DNA of 39,875 bases from positions 1-39,875 of the IMG/VR virus record IMGVR_UViG_3300037484_000138, one strand, 5' to 3'. This document shows positions 11,902 through 14,622 of this stretch, one piece after another; position 1 is the stretch's first letter; every line of letters begins with the position of its first letter. The stretch comes from a virus (Duplodnaviria; Caudoviricetes). The position numbers and the translations under genes are program-made. The notes under the pieces are model-generated. The model made no database searches, was not told the DNA's origin, and worked only from the letters and a program-made list of their open reading frames with translations.

Positions 11902-11934
11902 CTATTTTAGATTCCCATCTCACCTCCAGCGTCC

Positions 11935-12062
11935 GCCGAACGATTTGCGTTAGCCGCGCTGGGGCTAGTGACGGCGAAGCCGTCAAACCAGATAAAGCCA
12001 ACAGCGTAGATAAAGCCTAATTACGACACAGAATCCTCAGCGTCGTACACGCTGTGTTAGCC
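11935..12062 (-). other. attC site (distal), 128 bp
   Basis: - strand GGCTAAC-ACAGCGTGTACGACGC...GCGGCTAACGCAAATC-GTTCGGC. Confidence 0.85.
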
Positions 12063-12261
12063 CGCTGACTATTTCGGCGTAACGTTTTGGATGGCAATAG
12101 ATCGCGCCGCCAATAATATAAACTCCTGGGGTTTCGCGCATTTTTTGAAAAGGTTTCCACGGAAAAGAAAACAACCTTTCTTTCCATGTACGCTTTACCC
12201 AAACTGTTTCTGGAACCCATTTACTTTGAATGATTGGTGTGCTTGTTGTTTGATTTAACAT
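12037..12261 (-). CDS. Cassette ORF, hypothetical (74 aa)
   Basis: ATG 12261 with GGAGA RBS just after R'; ends 26 nt inside attC. Confidence 0.7.
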   Translation of the reverse strand: MLNQTTSTPIIQSKWVPETVWVKRTWKERLFSFPWKPFQKMRETPGVYIIGGAIYCHPKRYAEIVSGLTQRVRR

Positions 12262-12275
12262 ATTTTCTCCGAGCG

Positions 12276-12404
12276 GGCTAACGGTTTGCGTTACTGGTTT
12301 GTGGGCGGGCTGGGTAACTGCTTGAGAGCAGGATAAACCCGAAGCCAGAAAACTACTTGTAAACCGCGCAGACTCCCACAAATCCAGTGCATGCGGTGTT
12401 GGGC
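12276..12404 (-). other. attC site, 129 bp
   Basis: GCCCAAC-ACCGCATGCACTGGATTTGTGGG...CCCACAAACCAGTAACGCAAACC-GTTAGCC. Confidence 0.88.
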
Positions 12405-12407
12405 AGA

Positions 12408-12623
12408 CTAATGACCGTAATTACAACCAATGCGGGCGGACATGCCATTGATAAGCACGTCTTTTTCAAACGAGCCGCAACAACCTTGCGCCGCAACTGC
12501 TTCAAATTCCGCGACCTGCTCACCAACACTCAAAAAACAAAAGCGGTGATTATCAATGCAGGGGTCATCAACTTCTGCTTCCATCCATTTATACGCTTCT
12601 TCAACTGTTGCAAATTCAGGCAT
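12408..12623 (-). CDS. Cassette ORF, hypothetical Cys-containing acidic protein (71 aa)
   Basis: RBS; stops just before R''. Confidence 0.75.
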   Translation of the reverse strand: MPEFATVEEAYKWMEAEVDDPCIDNHRFCFLSVGEQVAEFEAVAAQGCCGSFEKDVLINGMSARIGCNYGH

Positions 12624-12655
12624 GATAGCCTACCTTTCTTGCGGGCAAGGGGTCT

Positions 12656-12745
12656 GCCGAACGGTTGAACTCACTGGCGCAAGCCTTATAACCCCTGCTT
12701 GAACGCGCCCTGTGGCGTAGCGTCTAGTGCAGTGACGTGTTCGGC
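12656..12745 (-). other. attC site, 90 bp
   Basis: GCCGAAC-ACGTCACTGCACTAGACGC...GCGCCAGTGAGTTCAACC-GTTCGGC. Confidence 0.8.
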
Positions 12746-12958
12746 GGCGACAAATTCAAGCTCCCAATACTGAACCTTTCTAATTTGCCTCTTGCCACTC
12801 TTGCCAACTTCACGAAGATGTAAGCCACCATGTTTACCTATGATTTCAAAACGTGTGCCAGCAGGAAATACAATACCGCCGCGAGTTTGCAATTCATTCT
12901 TATTGACAGCATAGAACTTTTGCAATTCAATCAATGACATTCGATCAAATCTTTTCAT
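12686..12958 (-). CDS. Cassette ORF, hypothetical basic protein (90 aa)
   Basis: ORF between attC sites; ends 60 nt inside attC; preceded by (CCGAGAAA)x3. Confidence 0.7.
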   Translation of the reverse strand: MKRFDRMSLIELQKFYAVNKNELQTRGGIVFPAGTRFEIIGKHGGLHLREVGKSGKRQIRKVQYWELEFVAAEHVTALDATPQGAFKQGL

Positions 12959-12990
12959 GTTTTCTCGGTTTCTCGGTTTCTCGGAAGTCC

Positions 12991-13115
12991 GCCGAACGGC
13001 TTGCGTTACTTGCGGGGCGATTCATAGTGCGAGCAATTGGGTTTATGAACCACAACTTGAGGGACACTACATTCAGGGCACAGCCCAGCCCCGTCAAGTG
13101 CACGCTTTGTTAGAA
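12991..13115 (-). other. attC site, 125 bp
   Basis: TTCTAAC-AAAGCGTGCACTTGACGGGG...CCCCGCAAGTAACGCAAGCC-GTTCGGC. Confidence 0.88.
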
Positions 13116-13248
13116 GGCTCATTTCCCGCAAAGCCCTCTCTGCCTCAAGACACATCATATAACACGTATTCTCGCCATGCTTATGACTGCGCCGGTAATA
13201 TCCGATAATTTGCTCAAGAGCATTTTTAGCAATTTCAAGTTCATTCAT
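13006..13248 (-). CDS. Cassette ORF (80 aa) with C-terminal CxxC...HxxxC motif
   Basis: ATG 13248 with AGGAGG RBS supplied by upstream R'; runs 110 nt into attC. Confidence 0.7.
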   Translation of the reverse strand: MNELEIAKNALEQIIGYYRRSHKHGENTCYMMCLEAERALREMSLLTKRALDGAGLCPECSVPQVVVHKPNCSHYESPRK

Positions 13249-13256
13249 AATATGCC

Positions 13257-13420
13257 TCCTAATGGGGCGAGCGTCACCCGCCATCCGAGCGGGTTGAAAT
13301 GCCCTTCCCGTTGCACGCATTACACTCGACATATTGATACGCAGTTTCAGGGACGCGCCCCATGCCATTACAGTCAGGGCATTTCTGCTCGGATTGGACG
13401 GGTGCACGCAGTAGTTCGGC
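13257..13420 (-). other. attC site with variant R' (ATTAGGA), 164 bp
   Basis: GCCGAAC-TACTGCGTGCACCCGTCCAATCCGAGC...GCTCGGATGGCGGGTGACGCTCGCCCC-ATTAGGA. Confidence 0.75.
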
Positions 13421-13537
13421 GGCGCGGTCAGGCACGCTGATATTAGAAATGACGACCTCTTGCCCAGCGGAATCATACTGCCGTACAACAACAAGCACAG
13501 CTCTATCATCAATTTCTATCTCATACTTTTCAGGCAT
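13274..13537 (-). CDS. Cassette ORF (87 aa) with DnaJ-type CxxCxGxG Zn finger
   Basis: CPDCNGMG...CNACNGKG; AAAGGA RBS; runs 147 nt into attC. Confidence 0.72.
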   Translation of the reverse strand: MPEKYEIEIDDRAVLVVVRQYDSAGQEVVISNISVPDRAAELLRAPVQSEQKCPDCNGMGRVPETAYQYVECNACNGKGISTRSDGG

Positions 13538-13626
13538 ATTGATTTATCCTTTCAACGAGCCGAACTACTGCGTTCTTTACGCTCGCCCATTCGGCGGATG
13601 CAAGCCCCCCGCAGTTTGGGGGAGCG

Positions 13627-13675
13627 CAGCGTCCGCCGAACTCATGATTCAACAGCAACACGCTGTTTAATAACG
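13627..13675 (-). other. Candidate attI-like site overlapping the intI 3' end
   Basis: intI stop TGA is immediately followed by G|TTCGGCGGACGCTG, the same sequence found after the distal attC. Confidence 0.5.
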
Positions 13676-14622
13676 GGACTTACACTATCTAGCGGACTAA
13701 CAACTCCGCTTCCCTTCATCGTCACATGTGTATAGATCATCGTAGTCTTCACATCCTTGTGCCCAAGTAACTCCTGTATCGTGCGGATGTCATACCGAAG
13801 TTCAAGCAGTCGTGTCGCAAACGAATGACGGAATGTGTGGGGACCTGCATTCTTATGGACACCCGCTTTCCTTACCGCCGCCTTGACTGCCTTCTGCACA
13901 CTCGTCTCATAGACATGATGACGCCGCTCTCTCCCGCTCCGTGGATCTGTAGAGAATCCGCCAGCGGGAAACACATACTGCCATGCCCATTCATACGGCG
14001 CTCTTGGATATTTCCTATCCAACGCATTCGGAAGTTCTACTTCGCCACGCCCATCTGCCAGGTCAATCGTGTGTTGCGCCTTTACCTTTGCCATGTGTAA
14101 CATCAATGCAGGTATCACCGACTCTGGTAGCACAGTGACCCGATCACGGTTCGACTTCGTTCCTCTCAACGTGATTGTCCGATTTCCAAAGTCAACATCC
14201 TTCACTCTTAGCCGCAGGCATTCCAACAAACGCAAACCGCTACCATACATCAACTGCCCCATGATCCGATACTGACCGTTCAACTGTTCGAGTATCCGTA
14301 TGGCTTCCTCGTGTGTCAGCACAACTGGCAGGTACATGGACTTCCGCGCAATTGGCACACCTGCATCATCGAACACCACGCCATACAATCCATACAGGAA
14401 CTTCAATGCCGCCCGCGCCTGGTTTTGTGTGGACGCGCTTACATTCTCATCAACTGCCAGATGAGTCAGGAACCGCTTTACTCCATCCATCCCAGCCTCT
14501 CTCGGATGGGTCGGCTTCGTGAACTTCACGTAATGCCTGATCCAGTGCATGTACGTCTTCTCGGTGCGATAGGCGTAATGCTTTGTCCGTAAAGCGTCAC
14601 GCACGGTTGAATACAAATTCAT
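13642..14622 (-). CDS. intI: Integron integrase (326 aa)
   Basis: [11 protein letters not shown]-domain, [11 protein letters not shown], integron-specific insert [55 protein letters not shown] overlap with upstream gene. Confidence 0.96.

Follow-up and report, generated by a model that had tools for sequence, protein, structure and literature searches.

We analysed a 39,875-nt stretch of viral DNA, record IMGVR_UViG_3300037484_000138 (hereafter the window), which carries on its minus strand an integron made up of an integrase gene (intI), an attI-like insertion site and five small gene cassettes, each with an attC site. The virus record is complete, its ends forming a direct terminal repeat of 127 nt, and in family searches its open reading frames (ORFs) were found to code for a terminase, a major head protein, an endolysin, a repressor and a serine integrase; because of these genes and the complete ends, the carrier is identified as a complete temperate tailed phage of 39.9 kb. 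Nearly all of its genes are on the minus strand, and the integron is flanked by the early genes (from 21,400 to 14,619) on one side and by a holin-like gene (our own label for a gene that had no match in family searches) and the terminases on the other.

The integrase gene (13642..14622) is intact and encodes 326 residues, the last ∼12–14 of which are extra C-terminal residues encoded by the attI-like site. IntI scored 395.2 bits against TIGR02249, far over the curated cut-off of 265, and residues 6–312 aligned with VchIntIA 2A3V (E 8e-77), integron insert included. The catalytic residues R131, K156, H262, R265, H288 and Y297 are all present, and were invariant in 7 of 7 aligned relatives. The gene is under purifying selection, with a ratio of nonsynonymous to synonymous change (dN/dS) of 0.055–0.091 in the 5 of 12 pairs for which it could be computed, the remaining 7 being saturated. 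A preliminary description of this DNA had reported an intact IntI with catalytic residues and integron insert, translationally overlapping an upstream phage gene and free of transposon borders, and had proposed a profile search for intI; these claims agree with the matches above and with what surrounds the gene. The stop codon of the upstream phage ORF (14619..14804, 61 residues with a CxxC..CxxC pattern that matched no family in profile searches) overlaps the intI start in an ATGA at 14619–14622, and no transposase was found among the 49 window ORFs scanned. The locus is not a mobile integron of the class 1 type, there being no transposase in these ORFs and 48% identity to IntI1. It has the sequence features of a complete integron (an IntI with insert and catalytic residues, attC sites, and an attI with a G|TT crossover), and the array lies 3′ of intI on the same strand, as in inverted-integrase integrons.

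The attI-like site occupies the last intI codons (13635..13673, minus strand), with a dyad at 13647–13671, an L-like box at 13647–13653 and a 5-nt spacer. The crossover G|TT falls at 13641/13640, immediately 3′ of the intI stop codon, and cassette 1 starts there. Among full-length loci of the core clade (at least 73% identity), the dyad and spacer precede G|TT in 19 of 19, and the stop codon stands immediately before G|TT in 17 and 7 nt earlier in the other 2. Beyond G|TT the sequence varies between core loci, so that different cassettes start at one conserved site. Across 13 intI genes, silent-site divergence (pS) was ∼0.6–0.98 and dropped to 0.17 in the last ten codons, compared with ∼0.75 elsewhere. 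Conservation of silent sites at the end of intI points to constraint on the DNA, as a recombination site would show, and, since the crossover follows directly after the stop codon, attI would lie within the last ∼10 intI codons. On this comparison of loci, intI has an adjoining attI at which insertion falls at G|TT. An exact search for the attI pattern in viral contigs found 3 contigs, all already in our set of loci.

Several further features around such sites were noted. The first 15 nt around the start of cassette 1 (13627–13641) are repeated past the last attC (11927..11941, minus strand), an unexplained repeat that could be a remnant of a leader-type cassette or of an empty site. At L086:4040-4137, intI is cut after about residue 270, and the spacer and G|TT are retained with a leader-type cassette. 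Two tandem copies of the attI-like motif stand 3′ of intI at L094:1100-1200 and L095:9150-9220.

The array holds five attC-like sites, all with the minus strand as top strand: attC1 (13257–13420, 164 nt, with an atypical A|TT), attC2 (12991–13115, 125 nt, 63 bits), attC3 (12656–12745, 90 nt, atypical L boxes, 30 bits), attC4 (12276–12404, 129 nt, 59 bits) and attC5 (11935–12062, 128 nt, 42 bits, several mismatched pairs). The bit scores are from a covariance model trained on 39 attC sites of other phages; its next best match in the genome scored 9.1 bits, and it missed attC1. A weight-matrix scorer trained without the window gave attC1 a score of 48, compared with a maximum of 16.5 in 25 simulated genomes, and missed attC3 and attC5, so no single method caught all five. 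The claim of five attC sites therefore stands as to their presence, with the covariance model recovering attC2–attC5 only and the scorer alone supporting attC1. The length of attC1 exceeds the 57–141 nt range given in the available part of PMC5027507, and it has ATT. An Rfam search of the window gave no match. The attC4 type recurs in another phage (87%) and in bacterial genome contigs (76–78%), and the attC5 type is also present in bacterial genome contigs. Single attCs of the kind seen in these phages lie in bacterial context in a Chloroflexi genome (L359:2999-3127, L360:3034-3163, L361:2919-3048), next to HEPN, PIN, IS110 or polysaccharide genes.

In the 39 training sites, which were picked by pattern and by a scorer that favour pairing, the arms paired in 93.7% of cells, above all 500 shuffles and all slid controls, and two-sided changes were found at 15 of 21 pairs. 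According to the portion of PMC5027507 at hand, the extrahelical bases of attC lie on the bottom-strand arm opposite AAC, with a G near 16, a T at 23–24 and a 6-bp stem between them. The phage attCs have an unpaired top-strand C at 16 and A at 22, fitting those data in side and identity, with a spacing of 5 bp, or 6 bp if the adjacent base is the unpaired one. The side of the unpaired bases makes the plus strand the recombinogenic bottom strand, so that the cassette genes are in the normal orientation and intI is inverted.

Five small ORFs of 87, 80, 90, 71 and 74 residues had been reported behind intI, and all were recovered: in cassette 1 (13263..13640) at 13274–13537, in cassette 2 (12997..13262) at 13006–13248, in cassette 3 (12662..12996) at 12686–12958, in cassette 4 (12282..12661) at 12408–12623 and in cassette 5 (11941..12281) at 12037–12261, the last being the weakest gene call. 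The four quoted pairings of a cassette start with its R′′ flank are likewise in the sequence, at 10/10, 9/10, 8/8 and 8/9 positions. The ORFs of cassettes 1 and 2 run into their attCs and have cysteine-rich tails; the first runs through attC1, whose loop encodes a zinc-finger-like CxxCxGxG tail, and the second ends at the TAA of the L′ box. Family searches named none for the third ORF and matched the fourth to phrog_33577, the ESM Atlas named no family for either, and all five ORFs are small, with no named function from these searches.

Cassette 1 opens with an 82-nt leader (13559..13640) containing a hairpin (13589–13641) and, at 13559–13595, an inverted short copy of both attC1 arms. A sixth attC at the latter position was considered and rejected, the sequence being such an arm copy, as in related leaders. 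Six of the nine leaders examined match downstream sequence as an inverted copy, and the three unmatched ones adjoin the ends of short loci. With an equilibrium folding model, the leader drops pairing of the attC1 L box from 0.9 to 0.0, and the R box is unpaired with or without it; our guess from this model is that the leader might serve as an excision lock. Cassette 3 has a leader with three 9-nt tandem repeats (12960–12990).

Related loci in phages and bacteria

IntI relatives at 76–80% identity were found in six IMG/VR contigs, three of which (L001, L004, L005) are complete genomes with terminal repeats, and a protein search added at least 119 further clusters at 74–83% identity, given there without context. 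Among 185,579 genomes, 66 loci were found, only 2 of them at 76% or above; both are phage-like contigs (L014 with a terminase, L015 with an HNH gene past the array), and one was binned with a Chloroflexi genome. A strict attC pattern in viral contigs gave 92 stretches, which fall into 84 loci from 78 contigs, copies of one phage included; a single locus has as many as 12 attCs. An IntI-like gene (27%–79% identity) lay upstream on the same strand in 14 of the 84. We then placed the integrases on a tree of 70 rows, rooted on two phage Xer-like proteins, with approximate likelihood ratio test (aLRT) support only and with six close core members, as well as genes that were broken or incomplete, left out. 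Integrases with downstream arrays grouped together (aLRT 98.7; core 99.4) in a mostly viral clade, whose sister group (86.5) includes the Anaerolineales IntIs.

The surroundings of the integron recur as well. Two upstream early genes of the window are repeated before intI in L091, and homologues of the holin-like gene follow the arrays of L292, L253, L281 and L305. Judged by its terminase, the nearest phage is G001 (84%), which shares synteny with the window and has a different array ahead of the small genes leading to the terminase. A TGnTATAAT motif past the window array (11893..11901, minus strand), a candidate late promoter, is also found past the arrays of L006, L014 and G001. These recurring neighbours and the motif argue against a chimera and for a position at the boundary of early and late genes. 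A stop-start overlap of intI with differing upstream genes recurs in L003, L005, L015 and the virus Rctr41k. In five phages chosen by terminase, intI was present in 0 of 5, and a Terminase_6N search in five records, drawn on for their completeness only, gave 0 of 5. The place of the array is not fixed, since it lies among head genes in L009 and ahead of primase-like genes in L001 and L005. The L009 integron (7890-14981) stands between a head morphogenesis gene and a capsid gene, and a second Xer-like tyrosine recombinase was seen directly before intI or after the array at L001:9242-10231, L005:11789-12721 and L256:4899-5828.

To follow cassettes as units, we compared 234 of them. Within a cassette, an average of 6.20 of the first 7 nt after GTT matched its R′′ flank (3.58 when shuffled), and all 7 did so in 139 cassettes, a match which indicates that the cassettes existed as circles and behave as units. 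Loci L289 and L258 share 1,309 nt, 100% identical from GTT to GTT; the block begins at the GTT after intI in L289 and after an attC in L258, and past it L258 carries a 551-nt block in common with L284. Among 17 cassette pairs of at least 85% identity, 12 lay within identical stretches, neighbours differed on one side in 3, and they differed on both sides in 2 (88% and 92% identity). One attI with differing arrays was found in L001–L006, L014, L015 and L083–L093. Second arrays with no adjacent integrase were seen at L014:17425-18577 and L015:3064-4862, one cassette of the former being closely related to the cassette that comes first in L004.

Cassette ORFs ran into their own attC in 180 of 232 cases, and 105 of the 180 stopped exactly at the L′-box stop codon, compared with 44 (maximum 66) in loop-swapped and 54 (maximum 72) in loop-shuffled controls; selection against wrong-frame read-through could explain this bias without any function of the tails. 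CxxC-like motifs were found in 22 of 107 attC-encoded tails, and among the phage cassettes one ORF body occurs with differing tails and near-identical tails occur on unrelated bodies. The 100 longest of 267 cassette ORFs gave 34 Pfam matches, 27 of them to DNA methyltransferase families, a cargo that fits anti-restriction use, as argued by Qi et al. (2023; PMC9892861).

Two of the 46 array records that lacked intI in the fetched DNA have it elsewhere. Of the 18 among these records that are at least 90% complete, 16 had no IntI at all (positive controls detected, 4 of 4), a count from a selected set that is not a frequency. Integrase-less arrays often start at a site ending TA|GTT. IntI was present in 131 of 401 Anaerolineales genomes, the 30 best being 51–56% identical to the window IntI, and an attI-like site was found in 13 of the 30, upstream of intI and on the other strand. 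With a matrix made from these 13 sites, which were picked by pattern, 18 of 29 integrase-less array starts scored above the 99th percentile of 8,579 other GTT sites, and two were identical to a host site over 14 nt; the window attI scored 6.9, the threshold being 2.7. The simplest reading is that integrase-less arrays would be served in trans by a host or co-resident integrase. Because of these host-like attI starts and the shared attC types, the host of the phage is likely to be an Anaerolineae bacterium. Integrase-less arrays often follow a gene of 60–80 codons whose product resembles, by eye, a small DNA-binding protein of ribbon-helix-helix type (L308, L309, L252, L263, L247 and L327).

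Proposed role of the integron and alternatives

We propose, with a probability of about 0.85, that a complete inverted-integrase integron at the end of the early gene run, with attI in the last intI codons, enables the phage to gain, lose and reshuffle small accessory genes. The preliminary description had suggested such a variable locus at the early/late boundary and a comparison of arrays in related phage contigs; that comparison bears the suggestion out, with the same attI-like site followed by different arrays, shared blocks running from crossover to crossover, and purifying selection on IntI. The steps below draw on integron biochemistry, as set out in the available parts of PMC5027507 and PMC5371416, and on sequence footprints. 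Translation of intI would be coupled to that of the upstream early gene on the early transcript, and the enzyme would in that case be produced when the phage is induced or infects a cell. Single strands would be exposed as the phage DNA replicates, and the plus (bottom) strand of attC could then fold; single-stranded DNA in replication favours bottom-strand folding, according to the portion of PMC5371416 available. IntI would release a cassette as a circle and insert this at attI, newest cassette first, and replication would resolve the product. Since intI, attI and the cassettes are co-oriented, early transcription would run on through the cassettes, which would need no promoter of their own.

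Several observations weigh against this proposal or narrow it. The recombination activity of IntI is putative, read from sequence footprints, and so is its independence of the serine integrase of the phage. None of the window's five cassette ORFs occurs in another fetched locus, sharing having been seen in other phages only; the ORF of cassette 4 was absent from the viral contig scan and has 10 protein relatives, given without context. The 1,309-nt block belongs to a different branch of the clade (42% identity), and stretches shared between genomes can be joined wrongly in metagenomic assembly. Little R-box pairing is predicted for attC1 (0.0), attC5 (0.02) and attC2 (0.11), and promoter and terminator matches in the window are no commoner than in shuffles. 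The integrases of L256, L261 and L307 fall under the TIGR02249 cut-off, on an earlier tree with a midpoint root the distant phage integrases stood apart from the core, and the most distant of them are on long branches. The record of G001, which has no intI, is linear and ends at the array locus, so that an intI may lie beyond its end. Support for the host is indirect, the serine integrase having matches of only 34–38%, in 2 of 401 Anaerolineales genomes. As to a purely viral lineage, L095 (66%) is inside the clade, with low support for its exact place (75), and lies among bacterial metabolic genes, its close kin L094 probably likewise; the integrase lineage is therefore not exclusive to phages. 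Most metagenome loci are too short to judge their context, and the viral loci L012 and L013 have integrases outside the phage-array group. The first cassette of L095 looks, by reading of the sequence, like a HigBA toxin-antitoxin pair.

An alternative that we consider unlikely is that the phage keeps its integrase with little contribution from it, and that host IntI, or homologous recombination between attC stems of co-infecting phages, rearranges the arrays. The near-complete phages with attCs and no IntI (16 of 18) speak for it, as do the 18 of 29 host-like array starts together with the host-matrix score of the window attI, and one ORF body with different attC loops is not expected from IntI crossover at G|TT. 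Yet dN/dS below 0.1 in the computable pairs and an attI variant of its own, kept at silent sites, point to an integrase in use, and the shared blocks end at GTT, not within stems.

Still less probable is a single acquisition, by this phage, of part of a host's chromosomal integron that is now a passive or decaying passenger, as in Vibrio phage Va_90-11-286_p16. It has a precedent in PMC9892861, L095 is a chromosomal member of the clade, the attC4 and attC5 types are in bacterial genome contigs, and attC1, attC2 and attC5 fold poorly at the R box. However, the only 2 of the 66 loci from 185,579 genomes at 76% or above are phage-like contigs, and the 30 best Anaerolineales integrases are only 51–56% identical, with their attI-like sites (13 of 30) upstream on the other strand; a near-identical intI and array in a host chromosome was not found in the genomes searched, where the nearest chromosomal member is at 66%. 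Purifying selection on IntI, an attI conserved at silent sites and phage-like cargo (27 methyltransferase families among the 100 longest cassette ORFs) also argue against a passenger. A chimeric assembly of phage and bacterial integron is very improbable, for despite the single metagenomic record and the lower G+C of the array (0.49, compared with 0.54 in the genome), the record has direct terminal repeats, intI overlaps a phage gene in ATGA, independent contigs show the neighbourhood on each side again (left, L091; right, G001, L292, L253, L281 and L305) and the same module is in three other complete genomes.

Returning to the proposed capture and reordering of cassettes by the phage, cassettes probably pass between host and phages, because Anaerolineae chromosomal integrons use similar attI and attC sites. 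A wider and decidedly tentative extension is that Anaerolineae phages and their hosts share a cassette economy, in which one integron lineage has become a phage organ, with the integrase at the end of an early operon and attI absorbed into the reading frame. Many phages would then have no more than a host-type attI and depend on an integrase of the host or of a co-resident phage, attC loops would act as exchangeable C-terminal tails, yielding proteins with new combinations of body and tail besides new orders of genes, and inverted-arm leaders would lock chosen cassettes.

Relation to described integrons

Integrons have been studied as bacterial devices, often with anti-phage genes, and the turnover of small accessory phage genes is usually ascribed to homologous or illegitimate recombination. 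Here phages carry the same device, at a position within the lytic programme that recurs and with DNA methylases as its commonest named cargo, and it offers phages a site-specific route for such turnover. An attI within coding sequence, the use of a host integrase in trans, and natural protein-encoding attCs can now be tested.

The preliminary description had also stated that integrons are not a recognised phage feature, which was too strong, since phage integrons are in print: the survey of Qi et al. (2023; PMC9892861) covered 10,705 phage genomes and recorded 3 integrons that were complete, with 1 In0 and 17 CALINs besides. The complete ones comprise part of the chromosomal integron of a Vibrio host, a mosaic of class 1 type, and a Shewanella integron in a cryptic prophage, which shares 95% identity with a chromosomal integron. 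Complete integrons, integrase-less arrays and methyltransferase cassettes in phages are common to both studies, and their phage attCs recombine with IntI1. Their cases are traceable to chromosomal or class 1 integrons, whereas the window belongs to a distinct integrase clade that recurs in unrelated phage backbones. Only 9 of 50,697 GenBank phage records match IntI at E ≤ 1e-40, all below 60% identity.

A group of integrons with inverted integrases, intI and attC being on the same strand, is described in Treponema and others in the accessible text of Cury et al. (2016; PMC4889954), and as far as that text goes it resembles the window in a true IntI co-oriented with the attC array, single-ORF cassettes and normal polarity. 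The likeness drawn here is one of layout, and the window differs in its tailed-phage carrier, an attI overlapping the intI coding sequence, an intI overlapping the upstream early gene, and phage-type cargo. Anaerolineales chromosomal integrons have a related IntI (51–56%), the same attC type and a similar attI-like motif. In contrast to the window, they mostly have, with the same attC model, the ordinary divergent layout, and in most loci inspected their IntI ends within a few residues of an SPLD motif, without an attI-encoded tail. The virus Rctr41k (KX853513, L365), from a DAMO/AAA enrichment, has a 43% identical integrase, annotated xerD, with an ATGA-type overlap with the upstream gene; at 4680-10101 it holds an unannotated integron of the same layout, with six attCs of this type downstream and two methyltransferase-like genes. 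It is absent from the searched supplement of Qi et al., and no paper in the literature searched mentions this virus. Synthetic attC sites that double as protein-coding sequence are reported in the part of Nivina et al. (2020; PMC7439510) available; such sites were engineered there, whereas they occur naturally in phages (180 of 232 cassettes).

A phage-adapted integron lineage with attI in coding sequence and integrase-less siblings was not found in the literature searched, outside of which lay most subscription journals, bioRxiv supplements and the Dryad files of Qi et al.; within the same limits, only PMC9892861 surfaced on integrons in phages. The available parts of PMC8618304, PMC2426708, PMC13323075 and bioRxiv 2026.09.14.751636 hold nothing on this lineage. 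The integron of the window is real, and its likely use by these phages for exchanging small accessory genes is barely described.

Other features of the phage genome

The serine integrase of the phage (22803..24260, plus strand) and the terminase large subunit (8934..10460, minus strand), both identified by family searches, lie outside the integron, the late genes starting ∼1.5 kb past the array. A terminator-like 13-bp hairpin (11751..11780, minus strand) precedes the holin-like gene. The best promoter-like site (21451..21478, minus strand, 11/12), from a search whose total matches were not above shuffles, stands at the head of the early genes running to intI, and a search for a cassette promoter (Pc) gave a 9/12 match inside intI, at chance level.

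Dispersed palindromic REP-like repeats were found between genes at 507–559, 11839–11870, 19345–19397, 25980–26028, 26501–26574, 33412–33460 and 35337–35385. A 62-nt element with a strong hairpin is present in two copies, 89% identical (11749–11810 and 35211–35272), one ahead of the holin-like gene and one ahead of the gene preceding the capsid gene, and it is possible that they form a common late control element. Finally, an open frame of 2,976 codons spans the circular junction on the minus strand (35385–39875 into 1–4564), over the terminal repeat; it has an ART-PolyVal domain in the part scanned, and probably encodes a giant virion-delivered polyvalent protein.

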